Assembly (NCBI GenBank): GCA_027083345.1
Contig: JALWOZ010000012.1
Location: forward strand, 4,025 to 68,024
DNA from: Candidatus Kaiserbacteria bacterium
GTDB taxonomy: Bacteria; Patescibacteriota; Minisyncoccia; Phycocordibacterales; UBA2100
Direction: 5' to 3'
Length of the DNA stretch: 64,000 nt
Of this stretch, positions 9,590 to 51,079 are shown one piece after another (the first letter of the stretch is position 1; each line of letters begins with the position of its first letter). A program made the position numbers and the translations under genes. Below the pieces are notes generated by a model, which worked only from the letters and a program-made list of their open reading frames with translations, did no database searches and was not told the origin of the DNA.

Positions 9590-9638
9590 ATGTAGTGTTG
9601 TGCATTTCGGAGCTCTTATCACAATAAGAGCGAAGTAG

Positions 9639-9721
9639 TGCGCCGAGTAGGATTCGAACCTACGTAGGCAATTGCCAACCGGGTTACAGCCGGTCCCATT
9701 TAACCACTCTGGCATCGACGC
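9639..9721 (-). tRNA. tRNA-Tyr (anticodon GTA), type II with a long variable arm; no encoded CCA.
   Basis: Manual fold: acceptor GCGTCGA/TCGGCGC, anticodon stem ACCGG/CCGGT with loop CTGTAAC, variable arm GGCAATTGCC, T-arm GTAGG-TTCGAAT-CCTAC. Confidence 0.8.
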
Positions 9722-22876: not shown

Positions 22877-22883
22877 AACAATG

Positions 22884-22957
22884 TACGCGTACCAGGATTC
22901 GAACCTGGGACCTCATCAGTATCAGTGATGCGCTCTAACCAACTGAGCTATACGCGT
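22884..22957 (-). tRNA. tRNA-Ile (anticodon GAT).
   Basis: Manual fold: acceptor ACGCGTA/TACGCGT, D-arm GCTC/GAGC, anticodon stem CATCA/TGATG with loop CTGATAC, T-arm CCAGG-TTCGAAT-CCTGG. Confidence 0.75.
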
Positions 22958-23900: not shown

Positions 23901-25700
23901 CTACTGAATATATGGCGCTCGCGGAGTACCATTCCATCGAACGTATTCAACTTCAACATCAGGTTTGGCGTTTGGTACAGGGAAACCTAAATTGCTACCG
24001 AAAAACAATCTACTATATAATTTTGAGCCGTCAAACCCACATACATACGGCGCAACATCTCCCCCTATATGATAATCATAAATAACAGGTATAGGATTAT
24101 CGTCAAGATACACATATGCATAAATACTCTCTTTAGGCAAAACTAAACGTATTTTATGGAACTTGTCAGTCAAGTCTGTTTTATATGTATCAAACCCTAC
24201 TCCAAGCGTACCTGAAGACATAGTAATACCATCCGGAGACAAACTAAGGGTTACTGTGCCAAACTGACTAAGATAAGAAACTACCCAAGCATTACTGTCG
24301 CTGTTAGGTTTAACACGTGCTTTTACCTCTAATGTAATACCGCTAGTGCCTGTAGTACCACTTGGACTACATACCATATGTGAAGAAGCATCATTCCAAA
24401 GAGTTGTATTTGGTAAAGATCCCGCAACCACACCCTGTCCTCCATACAAAGCACCGTTAAACCCTTGTACAGAATTAATCATGCCAGAGAAAGCCTCGCT
24501 AATCGAAGCACTAATCGGCAAAGATGGTATTGTTGGTTTTTGTTGTACTGGCGTTAATCTCTGAGAAGGTGCGAAGCTACCTAATCTATATTTAACATAA
24601 TCTATCACATATGCTGCATTTTTATCCGGAGCATTGCTTGCATCTCCTATAAGTAACTGGGGATATTTATAATAAGTCTGCAACTCTTGAGAAAGGCTAT
24701 TTTGAGTAGGAGCCATAGCATACCCAGCCTCTACACCATCAATATAAACATGCATCCTATATGCAGACCCTTGTTTATTGCTTTGTGTAATCCGTATAGT
24801 ATGGAACTTTGATCCTCCTCCAAAATCTCTCGTAAACACATTATCATCTACGTCTCCAGTCCCTACACGAACAGTACCTATACGAGAATTCCAAGTAGGA
24901 GTTAGTGAGACTCTCCATTGAGCACGACCTTTCTCTCCAACAAAACTAACTATAAAACCATCTTTATCTGTTTGCTCATATAATTTAACTCGCATCTCTA
25001 CGGTCATTCCTTTATCTACTGCACTATCAAGCAGAGGATCACGAATCCAAAAATTACCTGTCTCTAATTTATCTATAGCCCGATACCCCACATCATACGT
25101 GTCGACATCCATAAAACCACGTGATGGATAATTTAACCGTTGTGAGGCACTAAATAAAGGTTTGCCTGTATTGGCCATATAATTCCAATCATCCGGTCCT
25201 CCAATATCCCACCTAAAGGGATTTGGTACATTATCTGATGGAGTATCTGAACCATCAAATACATTATGCCACAAACCTCCATCAAACGTATAATTCCACA
25301 TAGCGGAACGTTCATTTATAAACGTTTGAGAATCTTGAGATTGGCATGTTGCATTTGTGTATGAACCATCCAATATCCCATCTATACAAGTCCTAACCTG
25401 ACTTTGACATTGACTGCCGTAAGGTACTGTCGAATCTTTATATGCTATTACATTACTCCCATGCGCTATGGTCTGCCCACCAAAAATACAAGACTTAGGA
25501 GCAACACACGACTGTTTAGATGAAGCTGAATAAGCATTCAATTCTCTCTTTAATTCAACAATTTGAGTTTGCAGCAACCCTATTATCTTAAGTAGAGACT
25601 GAATTTGATTAAATAATACGTCTGCCGTAACTGCACGAGCTGTTACAGGCAATACAAAAAATATTGCGACTATTAATAGTGTTAATATTGTCTTTCTCAT
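23901..25700 (-). CDS. Large secreted hypothetical protein with a signal peptide and an N-proximal coiled coil.
   Basis: MRKTILTLLIVAIFFVLPVTARA looks like a signal peptide. No recognisable catalytic motif was found. The start was chosen at the ATG at 25700; the track extends to a TTG at 25727. Confidence 0.4.
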   Translation of the reverse strand: MRKTILTLLIVAIFFVLPVTARAVTADVLFNQIQSLLKIIGLLQTQIVELKRELNAYSASSKQSCVAPKSCIFGGQTIAHGSNVIAYKDSTVPYGSQCQSQVRTCIDGILDGSYTNATCQSQDSQTFINERSAMWNYTFDGGLWHNVFDGSDTPSDNVPNPFRWDIGGPDDWNYMANTGKPLFSASQRLNYPSRGFMDVDTYDVGYRAIDKLETGNFWIRDPLLDSAVDKGMTVEMRVKLYEQTDKDGFIVSFVGEKGRAQWRVSLTPTWNSRIGTVRVGTGDVDDNVFTRDFGGGSKFHTIRITQSNKQGSAYRMHVYIDGVEAGYAMAPTQNSLSQELQTYYKYPQLLIGDASNAPDKNAAYVIDYVKYRLGSFAPSQRLTPVQQKPTIPSLPISASISEAFSGMINSVQGFNGALYGGQGVVAGSLPNTTLWNDASSHMVCSPSGTTGTSGITLEVKARVKPNSDSNAWVVSYLSQFGTVTLSLSPDGITMSSGTLGVGFDTYKTDLTDKFHKIRLVLPKESIYAYVYLDDNPIPVIYDYHIGGDVAPYVCGFDGSKLYSRLFFGSNLGFPVPNAKPDVEVEYVRWNGTPRAPYIQ

Positions 25701-25713
25701 AAACTGTAGTGTA

Positions 25714-25793
25714 ACATATGTAATCAATATAACTACTACTTTATACTAACACAACACTACTATACATATGTTATCAATTAATGTTGTCAATTA
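25714..25793. repeat. Three copies of an ATGTWATCAAT(TA) motif upstream of the secreted-protein gene. Two copies are tandem 13-mers (25768-25780 and 25781-25793) and one copy lies at about 25714-25728.
   Basis: Direct repeats are visible in the sequence, with 12/13 and 14/15 identities. They are a candidate operator or promoter element. Confidence 0.35.
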
Positions 25794-27931
25794 AAGATAA
25801 TTTTATCACCCTTAAGTGTAGCACGGATTGTATCACCGTCTTCAAACTTACCTCCAATAAGTGCCATTGCCAGCTCATCTAAGAGCTCTGTCTGTACGGC
25901 CCTCTTGAGCGGACGCGCACCGTACGCTGGGTCATAACCAACCTTTGCTATATGATCTTTAACAGCGTCATCTACCTCTAGGGTAATATTGCGCTCGTCT
26001 TTAATACTCTTTATTACTTGCTTGATTTGTATCTCTGCTATCTGTCGTAACATCTCTTTATCAAGAGCTGTAAATTGCACTATGTCGTCAATTCTATTCA
26101 AAAACTCTGGCCTAAAGTGCACTCTCACAGCATCCATCACCTTCTTCTCAGCACTCTTATCTACCTTGCCATCTTTGTCTCCAAGTAAGAATTCACTACC
26201 GATGTTACTTGTGAGTATGATTATTGTATTACTGAAGTTGACAGTCCTGCCATGATTGTCTGTGAGTCTACCATCGTCAAGAACCTGCAAGAGTAAGTTA
26301 AATACCTCCGGGTGAGCCTTCTCAACCTCATCAAAGAGCACTACTGAGTATGGCCTACGGCGCACAGGCTCTGTGAGTTGCCCTCCCTCCTCGTGACCGA
26401 TGTAGCCAGGAGGCGCACCTATAAGCCTGGCTACAGAGTGCTTCTCCATATACTCACTCATATCTATCCTCACCATCGCCTTCTTGGAGTCAAAGAGCTC
26501 TAGTGCAAGCGCTCTTGCAAGCTCCGTCTTGCCGACCCCTGTAGGCCCAAGGAAGAGAAATGAACCAATGGGCTTCTCATGACTCTTGAGGCCAGCGCGA
26601 CTCCTGCGCACCGCACGCGCCACAGCGCTCACAGCCTCCTCTTGCCCTACAACATGCTTTTGCAATTGCTCCTCAAGCTTTGTCAACTTGTCTGCCTCGG
26701 CCTCTACAAGGCGCTCGCTTGGTATACCCGTCCAGTGAGCCACTACCTTTGCCACATCCTCCTCTGTCACTTCCTCACGGATCATACGCTTGCTCTCTGG
26801 TATGACCTCAAGCTCCTTCTGCAACTCTGCTATCTCCTTCTCTAGCTTTGGTATTTTATTATATTGTATTTCCGCAACCTTCTCATATAGTGCCTCACGC
26901 TCATACTGCTCCATCTCCGTCCTTAAGTAGTCTATCTTCTCAGCAACCTCTTTTTGTTTGGCCAGAGCCTCCTTCTCCTTCTTCCACTGCTCCATCTCTT
27001 TATCATTCTCCTCTTTGAGATTTTTGATCCTCTCCTCTATTTTTTGCAATTTCTCTTTATTCTTTGTGCCTTTCTCTTTCTTTAGCATCTCCTTCTCTAT
27101 CTCTAGGCGGGCTATCTCTCTGTTGGCACTGTCTAGCACAGCAGGCATACTCTCTGCCTCTGTCTTAAGCACGCTTGTGGCTTCATCTACCAAATCTATT
27201 GCCTTATCTGGTAAAAAGCGGTCTGAGATGTACCTGTCTGAGAGCTTAGCGGCAGCCACAAGAGCCTCATCTGAGATGCGTACTCCGTGGTGTACCTCAT
27301 ACTTCTCTTTAAGCCCTCGCAAGATTGCTATTGTGTCCTCCACACTCGGCTCACCAACATATACTGGCTGGAAGCGTCGCTCTAACGCCTGATCCTTCTC
27401 TATATATTGTCTGTACTCCTCTAGGGTAGTGGCTCCTATCATATGTAACTGCCCGCGCGCAAGCATGGGCTTAAGCATATTGGCCGCGTCCATTGCTCCG
27501 CTTGTTTTGCCTGCTCCAACTATAGTGTGGAGCTCGTCTATAAAGAGTATTATCTGTCCCTGAGCCTTCTCCACCTCCTCAAGGAGCTTCTGCAAGCGCT
27601 CCTCAAACTCACCTTGATACTTGGCCCCTGCTATGAGGCTACTCATCTCTATCCCTACCACTCTCTTATCTTTAATACTCTCTGGTACATCTCCTGCAAT
27701 TATCCTCTGTGCTAACCCCTCCACTATAGCCGTCTTACCGACTCCGGGCTCGCCAATGAGCACGGGGTTGTTCTTACGCCTCCTGGCAAGCACCTGCATC
27801 ATACGACGCACCTCCTCGTCTCTACCTATCACCGGGTCGAGCTTACCCTCCTTGGCAAGTGCTGTGAAGTCTGTACCGTACTTCTCTAACACACTCTCAT
27901 TTTGACCTTGTTGTGATTGTTGGTTTGGCAT
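25787..27931 (-). CDS. clpB: Clp/Hsp100 AAA+ chaperone, ClpB-like, with a long coiled-coil M-domain and two AAA modules; no N-terminal domain.
   Basis: It has two Walker A motifs ([18 protein letters not shown] and [15 protein letters not shown]), a long KE-rich coiled-coil middle region, and a C-terminal D2 small domain. At 714 aa it is shorter than canonical ClpB. Confidence 0.8.
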
Positions 27932-27967
27932 AAGCTCTATAGATTAGTTAATAATTTTAATATTTAT

Positions 27968-27995
27968 ATTATACACCGCCTGTCAAGTATCACAA
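27968..27995 (-). promoter_or_regulatory. Candidate clpB promoter (TTGTGA, 16 nt spacer, TATAAT on the minus strand), about 35 nt upstream of the ATG.
   Basis: A perfect -10 hexamer was read from the reverse complement of 27968-27973. The -35 is moderate. Confidence 0.35.
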
Positions 27996-28085
27996 AAACT
28001 TGCAAATTGCTCTCTCTCTTGGTATTTTTGTCTTTAGAGTCACAATAGCAATTCCGCCAGTGGCAAAAACAAGGAGGAAAAAAAT

Positions 28086-28232
28086 ATGGGGAGAAAGATG
28101 AGAACAGCCCCTCAGAAAAAACACGCAATGAGGGGATTCGTACCTCGTTGCGGAAGGGGGTCTAACGGCCCCAAGAAAATGAAAGCTCGGTGCTGTCTGA
28201 GTAGACACAGGCGTAGGAGGAAACCTGTATGA
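28086..28232 (+). other. GC-rich small ORF (48 codons) preceded by a strong SD and encoding a very basic Cys-containing peptide (MGRKMRTAPQKKHAMRGFVPRCGRGSNGPKKMKARCCLSRHRRRRKPV). It could instead be a structured ncRNA.
   Basis: AAGGAGG lies 8 nt before the ATG at 28086, the frame is open to the TGA at 28230-28232, and a hairpin terminator follows about 30 nt later. It is below the ORF-track size cutoff. Arg-rich ORFs can arise by chance in GC/purine-rich DNA. Confidence 0.25.
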
Positions 28233-28262
28233 TCTCTCAATGAACATCAAAGGAACATCAAA

Positions 28263-28291
28263 GCCCCAAGATAGTAATATCTTGGGGCTTT
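28263..28291. terminator. Perfect hairpin gccccaagata-gtaa-tatcttggggc flanked by AAA and TTT. It is a candidate terminator for the 16S transcript (minus strand) and/or the small plus-strand cassette.
   Basis: The inverted repeat is visible. The U-tracts are short (3 nt) on both sides. Confidence 0.45.
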
Positions 28292-28684
28292 AACTTATCC
28301 GTTACAATTAAATAGCTAATCACCATACACTAAACCTGCAATTTCTCAATTACACAGTCTTAAAAATGTAGAAACAAATGAGTGTATACTCTTTTGTTTC
28401 GTCCACTTTACCACAGTGCACTCTCTGCTGTGGATTTCGGCTGTCTTTCCAGCTGTCATGTATAGATTAAGGTGCAATACAATTGCCCAATAGCAATAGT
28501 GCTATTATCGACAAGTAAGTCAAGTATGCGTACGCAATACTCGACGGATTCCATTTGGATTGATTCCACGACCAGCTTCCGCTAGCCGTGCCTTGTTACG
28601 ACTTATACCTTGTCACTGAATTTACCTTAGGCTGCCATAAAGACAGACTTTGGGTACTCCCAGCTCCCTTGTATTGACGGGCGG

Positions 28685-29576
28685 ATTGCAATAATGAAGG
28701 TTATCATCTTGCGTTCCCACGTAGCAAACGGTTTTCCCGTACTACGCGAGTCCAATAGTTCACTGATTCATACTTTGCTTAAAAGTACGAATCTTTTCAA
28801 TACCTTTTGGTGTCAGATGCTTACCTTGGCTAACCAAGTCTGCAATCTGACAAAAGATTTTGAAGCTTCTACCTTTAGAGGTAGTCTGCAGTTTATGCTT
28901 TTTGAAAAATGGAATCAGTGTTGACTCTATATCTCTCCAAGCACTTACAGTGTATCTATAACACTGAGTGTGATTTTTACGTTGTTCTTTTTGAAAATAT
29001 ACATTGCCACAATTAAGGGTTTTGCATATTCTATCTAGTATTCCTTTGTCTTTTGCTTGTAATTTTAAGTGAAAGTGCAACTGCACCTTATATCCACTTT
29101 TATAAGCTTTTGACTTAACAATACTGACATAAAAACAACCTTCACCATCAGTGATACCAACAATGTAATCTGCTGATACTATCGGTTTCGTCCTTCCCAT
29201 GCTACTTATTATAACATAACTTGCTATAATTAGATTGACGCATGGTACTACGACTCAGCTGACTTCTCATAACTTCTGACAAAACCTTTTCGGTGTCATG
29301 AGATCTCCCTGGGTCACTCTACATACCATTCTAAACATCCAACTACGACTTTTATCGTATACTTCTTCAATACCCACCAGAGTGAATCGTATACGTCGTT
29401 TTGATTATCATGTATTGCTACATGGAAGGCTGTTCTTCGCTACTTAGACCCTTCAGACGCTCTCTCGCGAGACGCGTCCTGTCTTTTCACTACGCTTATC
29501 TTACAACCGGTTGACTATAAGTAAGGGATTGATTTTAACAATCTGGCATTTTGTAGAGCTGCCAGGCACAGTTATT
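28685..29576 (-). mobile_element. Intervening sequence (intron-like) inside the 16S gene that carries a homing-endonuclease ORF.
   Basis: 16S collinearity with E. coli is broken after ...CCGCCCGTC on one side and resumes at GTACTCACA on the other. The insert is AT/GC-mixed and encodes a LAGLIDADG protein in the same orientation as the rRNA. The group I versus other class was not determined, and the boundaries are accurate to about 2 nt. Confidence 0.7.
28760..29200 (-). CDS. LAGLIDADG-family homing endonuclease (single-motif type).
   Basis: IVGITDGEGCFYVSI is a canonical LAGLIDADG motif. The 146-aa size fits homodimeric I-CreI-like enzymes. It is located inside the rRNA insertion. Confidence 0.75.
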   Translation of the reverse strand: MGRTKPIVSADYIVGITDGEGCFYVSIVKSKAYKSGYKVQLHFHLKLQAKDKGILDRICKTLNCGNVYFQKEQRKNHTQCYRYTVSAWRDIESTLIPFFKKHKLQTTSKGRSFKIFCQIADLVSQGKHLTPKGIEKIRTFKQSMNQ

Positions 29577-31008
29577 TGTGAGTACAAGGCTCGAGAACGT
29601 ATTCACCGTGACTTGCTGATTCACGATTACTAGCGATTCCGACTTCATGAGGTCGAGTTGCAGACCTCAATCCGAACTTGGGCTACTTTTAGGGATTTGC
29701 TCCAGCTTACGCCATCGCGCCCCTCTGTAGTAACCATTGTAGCGTGTGTGCAGCCCGGGATGTCAAAGGGACATGCTGACTTGGCGTCATCCTCACCTTC
29801 CTCCCCCGTGAGGGGGCAGTCTCGCCTGACAAATATAACAGGCAACGAGGGTTGCGTTCGTTACCCCACTTAAGGGAACAATTCAAACCACGAACTGACG
29901 ACAGCCATGCATCACCTGCCTAACACCCTCGAAGGAACCTATCTTTCAATAGGCGTGCAGTTAGGTTTCAAACCCCGGTAAGGTTTTCCGTTTAGCTACG
30001 AATTAAGCCACGCGCTCCACCGCTTGTGCGAGCCCCCGTCTATTCCTTTGAGTTTTAAACTTGCGTTCGTACTACCCAGGCGGTCCGTTTAACGCGTTAG
30101 CTACGTCTCAGAGAGGGTCGATGCTCCCTAAAACTAACGGACAGCGTTTAGGCCTAGGACTACTGGGGTATCTAATCCCATTCGCTACCCTAGGTTTCGT
30201 GTCTCAGCGTCAGGAGTGGTCCAGTGTGTTGCCTTCGCTTTTGGTGTTCCCCAAGATATCAACGGATTTCACCCCTACACCTTGAGTTCCACACACCTCT
30301 ACCATCCTCTAGTGTTGCCGTTTCGCTCGCCTTCCCGGGGTTAGGCCCCGGACTTTAACAAACGACTAACAACACCGCCTACACACCCTTTACGCCCAGT
30401 GAATCCGGGTAACGCTTGAGGCTCACGTATTACCGCTCCTGCTGGCACGTGATTAGGAGCCCCTTATTCATGAGGTAACGTCAATAAACTTCCTCCCTCA
30501 TAAAAGGTATTTACGCACCGAAGTGCTTCATCTACCACGCGGCATCGCACCGTCACACTTTCGTGCATTGCGGATGATTCTCGACTGCAGCCTCCCGTAG
30601 GAGTTTGGACCGTGTCTAAGTTCCAATGGTGGGGGTCAGGCTCTCACCTCCCCTAAGCGTCGTAGCCTTGGTAAGCCATTACCTTACCAACAAGCTGATA
30701 CTAAGCAGGCCGCTCCATAAGCGATAAATCTTTCCTCTTGCGAGATATCGTGTATTATCCTGGATTTCTCCAGGTTATTCACGACTTATGGGTACGTTCC
30801 TACCTGTTACTACCCCGTTTGCCATGGGTCTAACCCATTCGACTTGCATGCCTTATCCATGCCGCCAGCGTTCACCCTGAGCTAGGATCAAACTCTAATT
30901 AAAAAGTGAACGAAACAAAAGAAAATACAATCTTTTGATATCGTGGTTGTTACTGATTCTTTTAAAACGTAATGTTTTGTGTAGTTTAAACTTTTCTAAA
31001 CAAAAAGA

Positions 31009-48052: not shown

Positions 48053-49750
48053 CTACATTCTTTCTGGAGTGTTGATGCCCAAGATTTGCAAGCCGTTTTT
48101 AATTGTCTGAGCTGTTACCTCTGTTAGGGCTAGTTTGTAGTGCTCCGCATCTGTGCCGTCTAGTATCTTGCCCTGCGCATACCAGCTGTTGTATGCGCTA
48201 GCCAGGTCATTGAGATAATTTGCAATATGATGTGGCTGGTACTCCAGAGCCGCACGCTTCACTACCTCTGGAAATCTATAAAGCAACTTCTCTATGTTTG
48301 TATGCACCCAGTCTCTCGGCACTTGCACTTTTATGTCTCCTCTATGCGGATATGCCTTCGCCATCACCGACTTACACCTCGCATATGTATACTGCAAGTA
48401 TGGCCCAGAATCCCCCTCAAATGAGAGCGACTGCTCTATGTCGAAGGTGATATTCTTACCCATGCCTACCTTCACTATCGCATACTTAACAGCGGCAATT
48501 GCCACCATCTCTGCAGACTCCTCTGTCATCTCAGAACCTGATTCTTGCGCTCTCTCTAAGGCGGAGCTCTTTACAGAGTCTAGTATGTCTACCGCAAGAG
48601 GCACACCACCACTCCTAGAGGAGATCTTGCCCGTTGTGAGAGCAAGCCTGCCATGCTGGAGGAATAGCGACTTCTCTGCCCACTCTCTGTTAATAAGCTC
48701 TGCCGACTTCTTCACCAGCTCAAAGTGTTGCTTCTGCTCTACATCTGTAACTGTTATAGACTTATCAAAGTCATACTCTCTAAACTTAATACTAAGTAGT
48801 CCAGTGTCTTTAGCTAAATATGTACCAAAGCCGGCTGAGTTGATATACACATTGTCAAATAGTCCGTGCTCCGAGCCTCTGAATATCACAGCTCCGTCAG
48901 ACTCCTCAAACACACTCGGCACATTCTCAAGCACAATCCTCTTACCCTCCTGCTCAGCCTGAGTCTCAAATATCAGCTTGTCAAAGTGCGAGCCGAGCCG
49001 AGCTATGATGTTATTGAAGTACTCTAGCGAGAGCTCCCTACCCCTCTTATACACCTCGTACTCCGGTGAGTCCTCTTTGTTATATATATTGGTGTTTATT
49101 TCATTTATGCGAGCCTTTGCCCCCTCACTCTCTTTATACGCTTCTACACCCTTAACATACGCCTCGCCCACCTGCTCTATGGTAAAGTTCTCCGCAATAC
49201 CCATCTCTATGATACCCCACACCGCCTTGGCAATACCAGGCGACACATCTGAGGGGAAGGATATTGCAGTAACATAAGCACCAGCAAATTGCATTAAGCG
49301 TACAAGTGCCTCACCATATGTATTATTAACCAAATGCCCAATGTGGAAGGGTTTAAAAAGATTCGGCGAGCTATGCTCTAGTAGTATCTTCTCTCCGCTG
49401 AGAGCATCACTCTTGCCCCACTCTCCTCCGCGCTCTAAAGCCTCAGCAACACTATGCTCAAAGAACTCCTCAGAGAGGTGGAAGTTGATAAACCCTGGCC
49501 CGGCAATCTCTACCCTATCAACCCACTCAATCTCCGGCAACTTAGACACAATCTCCTCAGCCAACTCCCTGGGACTCTTACCCAACCCCTTAGAAAGTCG
49601 CATGGCAACATTACAAGAGTAATCACCGTGAGTTAAGTCAGCCGGATGCTCCAAAGTTATCTCAGTACCACTCACATCAATACCAACACCCGCACTCTCA
49701 AGAGCCTGCTTAAGCAGGCCTTTAATTACATCTTGTATCTCAACAGTCAT
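48053..49750 (-). CDS. argS: Arginyl-tRNA synthetase.
   Basis: It has the HIGH motif SPNLFKPFHIGHLVNN, the DALR anticodon-binding domain, and typical length. Confidence 0.85.
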   Translation of the reverse strand: MTVEIQDVIKGLLKQALESAGVGIDVSGTEITLEHPADLTHGDYSCNVAMRLSKGLGKSPRELAEEIVSKLPEIEWVDRVEIAGPGFINFHLSEEFFEHSVAEALERGGEWGKSDALSGEKILLEHSSPNLFKPFHIGHLVNNTYGEALVRLMQFAGAYVTAISFPSDVSPGIAKAVWGIIEMGIAENFTIEQVGEAYVKGVEAYKESEGAKARINEINTNIYNKEDSPEYEVYKRGRELSLEYFNNIIARLGSHFDKLIFETQAEQEGKRIVLENVPSVFEESDGAVIFRGSEHGLFDNVYINSAGFGTYLAKDTGLLSIKFREYDFDKSITVTDVEQKQHFELVKKSAELINREWAEKSLFLQHGRLALTTGKISSRSGGVPLAVDILDSVKSSALERAQESGSEMTEESAEMVAIAAVKYAIVKVGMGKNITFDIEQSLSFEGDSGPYLQYTYARCKSVMAKAYPHRGDIKVQVPRDWVHTNIEKLLYRFPEVVKRAALEYQPHHIANYLNDLASAYNSWYAQGKILDGTDAEHYKLALTEVTAQTIKNGLQILGINTPERM

Positions 49751-49869: not shown

Positions 49870-50007
49870 ATGCCCTATCAAACTGAAGAACAGTTCCACA
49901 ACAAATACTTCCTGTGTTCCATCGGGGGGAGTGGCGACTGGGATGATGGCGCCGCCAGCGACCAGGGCAATGGTGACAGCTCTGGTGATGTGGGTAATGA
50001 CCTGTAA
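49870..50007 (+). CDS. Small acidic peptide gene (45 aa, MPYQTEEQFHNKYFLCSIGGSGDWDDGAASDQGNGDSSGDVGNDL) in a GC-rich mini-cassette.
   Basis: There is a perfect SD AAAGGAGG at 49857-49864 with 5 nt to the ATG, an upstream TTGACA at 49797-49802, and a strong terminator at 50027-50070. It is below the ORF-track cutoff as a standalone ORF. It conflicts with an antisense 91-codon ORF. Confidence 0.35.
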   Translation: MPYQTEEQFHNKYFLCSIGGSGDWDDGAASDQGNGDSSGDVGNDL

Positions 50008-50098: not shown

Positions 50099-51079
50099 AT
50101 GAACTTATTCAAAGTCACAGCAAATAAAGAACTAGCTAGATTCTTCTGGCTACAATCTATGACACAGTGGATATGGTCTGCTCAAATACCTCAGTTAGTA
50201 AATCCGGCATTTAACAAACTGATAGCTGATTTTGTTAAAGATAATCATGTATTAATACATAAATGCAAAGAAATATTATCCGAGAAAGAACATAGCTTCA
50301 AGCTCATCTGGGATGTATATTTGAACAAAAATCTACTCAATGACGCTAACCTGGCGCCAATAAATAATTTGCTGCATGTCTTCAGTCCCGTATTCGACAT
50401 TATATGGGAATCTGAATTACCTCAAATAGATCAATGGTCAAAGCAAATCAATGCTGATTTTACAGAAGAACATCAATTATTTATAAAAAAAGTAAAACAA
50501 TTCTTGCAAAGTAATTTTGCCCAAAAAACACCAATAACCATATACCCATTATTGTGTAGCAAAAATCTTACAACATCTCTAATAAATAAAGATCATCCTA
50601 ACATAATACTAGCACAACACTGGGGGTGCTTTAATAATAAACAGATTATCATCAAATCATTAATGCATGAATATGTACACATGTTACAGAATAATTCAAA
50701 ATCCGATGAATTTCTGCGCACGGCTTTTATTAAAGTTAAAATACCAGAAAATCTTAAAGATACTGAAAATGCACCGCCGCTTAGTTATGTAGCACGAGAG
50801 ATTTTGGTACAATCTTTAGTGTCTACAGAATTACCCTCTTACTACTCAGTATATTTTCACCACAATAATGAATTCAGTAACATACATAAACCCCAGTCTA
50901 TAAAAAATGAGTTGAATAAAAAAACCTATCATGATTGGTACTCTCATATAAGATATATAGCATACGAAAGTCAAAATATATTAAATGAATATATGCAAAA
51001 AGAGAAATCTATAGACCAAGAGTATTGTGATAAATTAGCTAAAATAACTATTAATCATATTAATAATCTTAATAGTTAA
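50099..51079 (+). CDS. Hypothetical protein with an HExxH motif (LMHEYVHML); a possible zinc-metallopeptidase-like protein.
   Basis: Only the HEYVH motif was recognised. It is AT-rich, with native-like composition. Confidence 0.3.
   Translation: MNLFKVTANKELARFFWLQSMTQWIWSAQIPQLVNPAFNKLIADFVKDNHVLIHKCKEILSEKEHSFKLIWDVYLNKNLLNDANLAPINNLLHVFSPVFDIIWESELPQIDQWSKQINADFTEEHQLFIKKVKQFLQSNFAQKTPITIYPLLCSKNLTTSLINKDHPNIILAQHWGCFNNKQIIIKSLMHEYVHMLQNNSKSDEFLRTAFIKVKIPENLKDTENAPPLSYVAREILVQSLVSTELPSYYSVYFHHNNEFSNIHKPQSIKNELNKKTYHDWYSHIRYIAYESQNILNEYMQKEKSIDQEYCDKLAKITINHINNLNS

Follow-up and report, generated by a model that had tools for sequence, protein, structure and literature searches.

A probable unannotated micro-gene for an ultra-basic peptide in the variable spacer between the 16S rRNA and clpB genes of a Candidatus Kaiserbacteria bacterium

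What, if anything, is encoded in the short stretch that separates the 3' end of the 16S rRNA gene from clpB in a 64,000-nt stretch of Candidatus Kaiserbacteria DNA? We refer to this whole stretch as the window, and all coordinates count from its first letter. An earlier note had pointed to a GC-rich segment in this spacer and had left the choice even between a small, very basic peptide led by a Shine-Dalgarno (SD) motif and a structured small RNA (sRNA). Our analysis makes it likely that the spacer contains a real, unannotated plus-strand gene for a 48-residue ultra-basic peptide that matches no family, and the comparative evidence speaks strongly for a protein-coding gene rather than an sRNA. 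The elements of this unit are the following (types A and B denote two kinds of open reading frame (ORF), described below, and a cassette is such an ORF with its signals).

28000..28005, plus strand: -35 hexamer TTGCAA, read directly; in the alignment TTGC is invariant and TTGCAA or TTGCTT is kept in five of five cassettes (types A and B)
28020..28028, plus strand: extended -10 element TGGTATTTT, near-invariant in five of five cassettes as TTGGTAT(T)TTT
28036..28085, plus strand: 5' leader of about 50 nt with a 5'-proximal hairpin (28039-28043 / 28060-28064) followed by an A-rich single-stranded stretch, from RNAfold
28071..28077, plus strand: SD-like motif AAGGAGG, read directly, 8 nt upstream of the ATG at 28086
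28086..28232, plus strand: type A ORF of 48 codons with a TGA stop at 28230-28232, from the ORF listing
28260..28291, both strands: perfect 14-bp hairpin with stem AAAGCCCCAAGATA / TATCTTGGGGCTTT, loop GTAA and flanks AAA and TTT, from direct reading, folding and the terminator scan

A small unit under protein-level selection

Relatives of the locus were collected through ClpB homologues at 80-93% identity, which gave eleven related loci whose 16S-clpB spacers were aligned and scanned for ORFs. In two of these loci, L082 and L083 (ClpB 87% identical), the same place holds, in the same orientation, a 47-codon ORF (MPRKQKNTPQKKLVMRGFKSRCGKGSKGPKKMGNKCCKSQFRHRRHA) with the same start relative to the GGAGG motif and a stop within one codon of that in the window. 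A tblastn search with the window peptide, MGRKMRTAPQKKHAMRGFVPRCGRGSNGPKKMKARCCLSRHRRRRKPV (48 amino acids), identified this ORF as its orthologue with an E-value of 1e-14 in a comparison set of roughly 1 Mb of DNA. The motif, start codon and 48-codon frame described in the earlier note are all present in the sequence, the ORF listing giving the same peptide, and the frame is intact, not frameshifted, in the orthologous region. We call this ORF type A.

Between the window and L082 the type A ORF is 57% identical at the nucleotide level and 59% identical at the amino acid level (27/46), and 12 of the 27 identical residues are encoded through synonymous codon changes. Differences fall on the three codon positions as 16/15/28, with a non-synonymous divergence (pN) of 0.29 and a synonymous divergence (pS) of 0.95. 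For ClpB, the same pair of genomes gives a pS of 0.78, which is saturated, and a pN of 0.088; because synonymous sites of ClpB are saturated, unconstrained DNA should no longer align. Only the type A frame is open in both species, whereas the other five frames have 11-21 identities and stops in at least one of them. When alignment columns were permuted, the null distribution averaged 14.1 +/- 2.3 identities and never exceeded 23, so that none of 20000 permutations reached 27, and 1.2% of them left the frames of both species open. At non-synonymous sites the type A ORF thus changes at about three times the rate of ClpB, yet it is clearly constrained, and these comparisons show it to be under purifying selection at the protein level.

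The base composition of the region is less telling than it first seemed. The GC content of the ORF (0.52) does exceed that of the spacer toward clpB (0.32) and of the stretch toward the 16S end (0.38), as the earlier note had observed, but it is simply what coding and rRNA sequences have in this genome, with 0.48 for clpB and 0.39 for the whole window, so that high GC alone is no argument for a structured RNA. The ORF strand is purine-rich as are other coding strands (AT skew +0.3 to +0.5).

The signals around the ORF suggest a self-contained monocistronic unit at 28000-28291, consisting of a 5' hairpin, an A-rich leader with GGAGG, the 48-codon ORF and an intrinsic terminator. The extended -10 promoter (TTGCAA-N17-TATTTT, with TGG inside the spacer) would drive a plus-strand transcript of about 255 nt from a start at about 28036. 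Its 17-nt spacer separates the -35 hexamer from a -10 box of the TG-extended style seen in other promoters of the host genome; in the alignment of this element L082 and L085 carry a 1-nt gap. A simple promoter scanner did not list this promoter, TATTTT being too low in its scoring scheme. The clpB promoter (TTGTGA-16-TATAAT, 27995-27968, minus strand) lies back-to-back with it, about 30 nt apart.

According to RNAfold, the four related leaders all form a hairpin of 8-9 bp at one common position, where the window has a weaker stem of 5 bp. Comparing the L081 and L082 stems by eye shows substitutions that are matched across the stem (G-C/U-A, A-U/G-C, C-G/U-A), and such a hairpin would probably stabilise the mRNA. 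The GGAGG-like motif is unpaired in the minimum free energy fold of four of the five leaders, is partly paired by a short outer stem in L081, and is also paired in the centroid fold of the window.

The perfect hairpin beyond the frame begins 27 nt past the stop codon, at 28260-28291, rather than 30 nt past it at 28263-28291 as first described. The terminator scan lists it on the minus strand (28294-28257), beyond the 16S trailer, in agreement with its earlier designation as the 16S terminator. Each related cassette has its own GC-rich hairpin straight after the stop codon, and RNAalifold on the window and L082 keeps the terminator stem with 4 compensatory pairs. From its sequence, we take the hairpin to be a bidirectional intrinsic terminator, common to the small gene on the plus strand and the convergent 16S unit on the minus strand, where it would also end the 16S rRNA transcript.

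That the transcript is instead a non-coding, or mainly non-coding, structured sRNA, with an incidental or dual-function ORF, seems quite unlikely. Such a view could call on the compactness of the unit, which at about 255 nt and with a promoter and a terminator to itself looks like a typical sRNA gene, and on the folding of the region, which is better than that of shuffled sequences on both strands (z -4.5 and -3.7), mostly due to the terminator hairpin. The local hairpin CCCCTCA (28108-28114) / TGAGGGG (28129-28135) pointed out in the earlier note exists. Within the ORF, RNAalifold finds hairpins conserved between the window and L082. One of them (GGGGGUC-UAAC-GGCCCC versus GGGCUC-GAAA-GGGCCC) includes a single compensatory pair at synonymous sites, and in the same prediction the GGAGG motif might form 4 bp with CCUC in codons 19-21. 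Since the host has no anti-SD sequence (see below), GGAGG might in addition serve RNA-RNA pairing instead of ribosome binding.

Against an sRNA stand the frame-specific, third-position-biased conservation with its 12 synonymous changes in identical residues, and the fact that the largest ORF hairpin of the window (GCAAUGAGG...CCUCGUUGC) is not kept in L082. An unrelated but open type B ORF also occupies the same frame of the transcript in three species, and a structural RNA would not be so replaced. Rfam at gathering thresholds gave nothing in 27932-28560, so that no known RNA family, 5S, SRP, tmRNA, RNase P, 6S, riboswitches and sRNAs among them, explains the region, and a permissive Rfam search gave no family for the ORF even at E<0.05. 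The best match in the ORF, TUSC7, a eukaryotic long non-coding RNA, is meaningless (20.6 bits versus 65, E=3), and for the terminator hairpin only sar RNA was returned (24 bits versus 43). ARAGORN placed no tRNA or tmRNA at the cassette, the genes it found in the window being only tRNA-Tyr (9638-9721) and tRNA-Ile (22883-22957). Of the two options first put forward, we thus retain the peptide, and the transcript may have an additional RNA-level role.

A variable slot between 16S and clpB

The closest named ClpB homologues of the window belong to Candidatus Paceibacterota/Parcubacteria, and the order SecD-SecF-16S-clpB is kept in most of the related loci, whereas the content of the 16S-clpB slot is not. 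Apart from L082 and L083, the related loci read as follows.

L081, L085 and L090/L091 (three species): type B slot, an unrelated basic peptide, for example MAFTKSCKKKRAEMKAKRAAKAAKKRKMTKRAKRAAKWGYDLHELTD
L081 4343-4483, L085 2488-2613, L090 737-868 and L091 244-375, all minus strand: type B ORFs
L084, L087 and L088: empty slot, in which the 16S terminator abuts the clpB promoter
L086 2415-2813 and L089 1883-2281, plus strand: a 132-amino-acid hydrophobic, membrane-like ORF instead, co-oriented with clpB, with start context AATGGAGGAGATTTGATG
L092 and L093: different upstream regions

The type A ORF is therefore found in the window plus one other species, that is, in 2 of the approximately 11 related species sampled. 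Type B peptides form a family of 42-47 basic residues with the pattern M-[AS]-F-x-K-S-[CG]-K-x-K...K-[WL]-G-[YF]...E-L; they are mutually 47-58% identical by tblastn and 50-60% identical to the L081 peptide in the alignment, and they had previously been called as a gene only in L090/L091. Their differences are also in excess at the third codon position (5/5/12, 7/4/9 and 6/4/10 by codon position). Homology between types A and B was considered and rejected, given that tblastn found no similarity between them, and the idea that type B is a truncated bS22/S21, suggested by its 'F-K-SCK' motif, was discarded for want of profile hidden Markov model (HMM) support.

The promoter, the leader hairpin, the GGAGG-like motif and the cassette's own terminator hairpin are common to all five cassettes, and the promoter and leader of L082 (type A) are nearly the same as those of L085 (type B) although the ORFs differ, which indicates that the ORFs have been swapped behind a common expression platform. 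Comparison of these spacers shows the small gene to be an accessory, replaceable cassette and not a core gene.

Presence, absence and replacement at one intergenic slot among close relatives are also what a small toxic protein would display, either as a toxin-antitoxin (TA)-like module or as a competition module, type I-like and under antisense control via read-through from the 16S or the clpB side. The resemblance to type I TA systems extends to the size (less than 60 codons), the structured 5' leader, the intergenic location, the strong motif resembling a ribosome-binding site and the fast evolution (pN 0.29 versus 0.088 for ClpB). We nevertheless consider a toxin improbable. Almost every type I toxin is marked by a hydrophobic or transmembrane segment, which is lacking in type A and type B peptides alike; the type A peptide is uniformly polycationic and not amphipathic. 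On the minus strand the scan of the cassette lists nothing but the clpB promoters and the terminator, with no antisense promoter or conserved antisense RNA identified, and the bidirectional terminator would shield the ORF from 16S read-through. Searches of Pfam and PHROGs, which did not extend to defence and toxin models including PADLOC, returned only weak matches, both for the type B peptide of L081: a sub-threshold Pfam Histone_HNS_N (E 0.0025, 18.1 bits versus a cut-off of 24.5) and phrog_33867 (E 0.038). The other small peptides had no Pfam or PHROGs match.

It is improbable, too, that the ORF is a non-functional relic, a recent or foreign insert, for example from an SD-using donor, that is now decaying. 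Its patchy spread, the clean indel boundaries relative to L087 and L088, an SD-like motif foreign to the translation style of the host, and the failure of protein, viral, phage and plasmid searches to find homologues would fit such an origin. However, the ORF is intact and has kept its length and motifs across saturated synonymous divergence, the promoter matches the extended -10 style of the host and is conserved in five species, and we found no transposase genes, repeats, or phage or plasmid similarity.

An SD-like leader in a host without an anti-SD sequence

The host is a Parcubacteria/Paceibacteria-type bacterium of the candidate phyla radiation (CPR), and its translation signals raise a difficulty for the small gene, which the earlier note had described as SD-led. 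The motif is indeed present and conserved in position, with GGAGG, GGGAGG or GAGGAG 4-10 nt before the ATG in five of five small ORFs of both types. The 16S rRNA, on the other hand, ends in ...GGTCGTGGAATCAATCCRAATGGAATCC in the window and in seven relatives, and neither CCTCC nor CTCCT occurs within 330 nt after GTCGTAACAAGG in these eight sequences. In the window the 3' end (28530-28600, minus strand) reads ...GGTCGTGGAATCAATCCAAATGGAATCC, and in six of the seven relatives the R of GGAATCAATCCRAATGGAATCC is the one position that differs, the consensus tail of the window and these six being GGAAUCAAUCCRAAUGGAAUCC. The seventh, L090, has GGAAUCAAUCCGAUAGGAAUCC, and also GATAGG in place of RAATGG. 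At the corresponding point E. coli 16S rRNA has GGATCACCTCCTTA. With a 16S rRNA lacking the CCUCC anti-SD sequence, classical SD/anti-SD pairing cannot be assumed for the small gene. Loss of the anti-SD sequence has already been reported for a subgroup of Parcubacteria (PMC9297842).

SD motifs are rare in the other genes as well: a 5-mer SD core precedes only 3 of the 44 long ORFs of the window. A TATAAT/TATACT-like box, often TG-extended, lies at most 18 nt from the start codon in 14 of the 44, as in the following examples.

7641, 12775, 13574, 19037, 39788 and 42470, minus strand: start codons with such a -10 box

Boxes of this kind right at start codons imply widespread leaderless mRNAs. 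Against a host that is mostly SD-less or leaderless, a GGAGG-like motif in all five small ORFs is unexpected, and we found no explanation for it. One candidate, that AAGGAGG is the complement of a displaced 16S end, with an intron splitting off a CCUCCUU 3' exon, was rejected: the motif varies and is absent from cassette-less genomes. A second small ORF with a strong SD-like motif (AAAGGAGGCTACTATG) was seen elsewhere in the window, at 49870-50007 (plus strand, 45 codons); its product is acidic and Gly/Asp/Ser-rich (MPYQTEEQFHNKYFLCSIGGSGDWDDGAASDQGNGDSSGDVGNDL), and it lies in the divergent intergenic region between genes 48053-49750 (minus strand) and 50099-51079 (plus strand).

The remaining explanation, a minus-strand element such as a pre-16S 3' trailer or spacer, or a degenerate tRNA- or tmRNA-like remnant, in which CCUCCUU at 28077-28071 mimics the missing 16S end, is barely credible, for although the strand has UUCCUCCUUG, a sequence similar to the canonical 16S 3' terminus missing here, and a GAGG-UACGAAUCC-CCUC motif, described earlier as T-arm-like, and although tRNA genes follow 16S in many bacteria, ARAGORN and Rfam find nothing there, the T-arm-like hairpin is lost in L082, the CCUCC complement varies (CCCUCCCUU in L082/L085, UUUCCUCCCUG in L081, CCUCUCCUC in L090), the processing stem closes at 28375-28409 with the strong terminator (28294-28257) between trailer and cassette, and the whole cassette is missing in L084, L087 and L088, which have the same 16S.

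The 16S gene itself and its surroundings are arranged as follows.

SecD, SecF, 16S rRNA and clpB (25787-27931), in this order on the minus strand
28556-30903, minus strand: 16S rRNA gene, the 3' exon ending near 28556
About 28685-29521, minus strand: 16S intron of about 840 nt, inserted just before CCGCCCGUCA
28760-29200, minus strand: LAGLIDADG endonuclease ORF of 146 amino acids in the 16S intron, Pfam E 1e-21

The intron site presumably corresponds to about E. coli position 1398/1399, and the intron is present in L081 and L084 and absent in L082 and L088. Rfam gave a marginal group-II D1-D4 match within it (29190-29301, 37.7 bits versus a cut-off of 35), which is unusual in that LAGLIDADG-bearing rRNA introns are normally group I. 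A 35-nt leader/trailer pair (28375-28409 versus 30903-30937), 86% complementary, is presumably the pre-rRNA processing stem. The trailer of about 180 nt (28375-28556) is 80-92% identical to that of relatives and contains an internal hairpin with apparent compensatory changes (ATAATAGCACT...ATTGCTATT versus TTTCTGTGCC...GCACAGAA).

In rRNA operons tRNA-Ile(GAT) usually follows 16S; here it is found at 22883-22957 (minus strand), about 5.6 kb downstream of the 16S end, with clpB and a Cys-rich ORF of 608 amino acids (23901-25727, minus strand), for which no Pfam family was found, in between. There is no 23S or 5S gene in the window, and within it the 16S gene is therefore unlinked. The ClpB proteins of the clade are short (670-720 amino acids) and without Clp_N (PF02861 is absent in P0001-P0016), the 670-residue P0005 covering 94% of the query. 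More distant Paceibacterota ClpB proteins have about 860 amino acids and Clp_N, and some equally distant ones of about 705 (P0019, P0020 and P0023) are without it.

The peptide, its possible counterparts and its meaning

The type A peptide has a computed mass of 5.6 kDa, a net charge of about +17.6, with 18 K+R and no D/E, and a pI of 12.0, where the earlier note had predicted a value above 12. It contains three Cys rather than the four counted before (C22, C36 and C37), all kept in L082, in the pattern C-x13-CC, whereas its His positions are not conserved there; the conserved blocks are PQKK, MRGF, RCG-GS-GPKKM and CC-S. The product would be a disordered polycation, on the evidence of its composition and of a structure model, and it probably acts via electrostatic binding of nucleic acid. 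The most likely target would be rRNA or the ribosome, as for bS22, bL37 and RMF/SRA; alternatively it could compact DNA in the way of protamines or H1. Metal binding or disulfide formation may be the role of the three Cys. A zinc ribbon or zinc knuckle has four ligands, typically in two CxxC/CxxH pairs, and the peptide has no CxxC pair.

Searches of sequence libraries returned no relative of either peptide type. For type A neither Pfam nor NCBIfam gave any family at E<=10 and PHROGs gave no match, for type B these three libraries likewise gave nothing significant, and profile HMMs of bL34 (PF00468) and other small ribosomal protein families gave no match. A two-sequence type A profile retrieved zero chains from PDB sequences at E<=10, and a type B profile nothing; the likeness to bL34, zinc-ribbon or protamine peptides suggested in the earlier note is thus not borne out. 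With the alignments of types A and B as queries, a word-indexed search of 5.8 billion clustered proteins gave no match, and an exhaustive phmmer search with the type A peptide against 1.84 billion representatives gave 0 matches. Exact look-ups, however, found 0 of the 5 small peptides in the protein collection, even where the gene had been called, so that such searches can hardly register ORFs of this length and their negatives are weak evidence. Viral contig scans (types A and B), phage tblastn and plasmid blastn found nothing. A metagenome scan with the cassette promoter pattern gave 0 matches, and one with the clade-specific 16S tail a single locus, without the cassette. A contig scan with ClpB, which is too conserved for this purpose, returned 80 loci, all from unrelated phyla at 55-62% identity.

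Several of these observations, taken together, weigh against a functional protein-coding gene. No homologue turned up in the protein libraries; there are only two independent type A sequences, which makes the selection test one pairwise comparison; and the hairpin with a compensatory pair lies inside the ORF. The apparent ribosome-binding site cannot work by the textbook mechanism, translation of the ORF being predicted only, and the patchy spread argues against an essential or core ribosomal role. As to the product, the single-sequence AlphaFold model has low confidence (pLDDT 68) with only a C-terminal helix at residues 30-44, and nucleic-acid or ribosome binding is suggested by composition alone. 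We still regard a genuine small gene for an ultra-basic peptide as the probable content of the spacer.

Several known systems offer counterparts to this peptide. In the mycobacterial ribosome, cryo-electron microscopy revealed bS22 (33 amino acids, pI 12.75) and bL37 (24 amino acids, pI 12.02), which had been overlooked by annotation and pack Lys/Arg against rRNA helices (bioRxiv 10.1101/2023.03.31.535098). The type A peptide is likewise tiny (48 amino acids), strongly basic (pI 12.0, +17.6), unannotated and encoded beside the 16S gene. It differs from bS22 (PF08213/DUF1713) and bL37 in having no Pfam or PDB match at E<=10, ribosome structures included, and whereas those proteins are phylum-wide, type A occurs in 2 of the approximately 11 species sampled and its association with the ribosome is only predicted.

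The bL34 (rpmH) and bL36, bL31 and bL33 types are similar in size (38-55 amino acids) and Arg/Lys content, and type A has a loose 'RGF...NG' stretch and some Cys, but it lacks an HMM match, is not in an rpmH-rnpA or spc-operon context, and is patchy. With RMF and SRA (bS22 in E. coli nomenclature), which associate with ribosomes under stress or in stationary phase, it shares small size, basicity, accessory status and a monocistronic gene with its own promoter and terminator, although there is no sequence similarity; the intergenic region that the small gene shares with the stress gene clpB, with divergent promoters, would fit stress-linked expression. Finally, H1- or protamine-like DNA binders rich in Lys/Ala, such as chlamydial Hc1/Hc2, resemble mainly the Lys/Arg/Ala-rich type B peptides; the peptides are much shorter, the H-NS_N match is weak, sub-threshold and compositional, and type A has none.

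What, then, does the locus mean for the organism? What we find is an orphan micro-gene, unannotated and placed in a variable slot, and its one real curiosity is the SD-like leader, given that the host has no anti-SD sequence. If the peptide is a mere dispensable orphan, this is a routine annotation gap. It is doubtful, but conceivable, that the slot encodes interchangeable polycations (types A and B) that serve as accessory parts or modulators of the reduced CPR ribosome, analogous to bS22, bL37 or RMF, and that the GGAGG leader reveals another mechanism of initiation or regulation; if so, this leader could pair with another rRNA or mRNA site, or be a protein-binding operator for autoregulation.

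The composition of the reduced ribosomes of CPR/Patescibacteria is known almost only from genome inference, and tiny basic proteins systematically escape annotation, bS22 and bL37 having come to light only by cryo-electron microscopy. For CPR ribosome preparations or metaproteomes, a conserved, unannotated, ultra-basic micro-gene by the single 16S gene offers a concrete candidate to search for, and the GGAGG-like motif in all five small ORFs gives a testable handle on initiation in a largely leaderless lineage without an anti-SD sequence.

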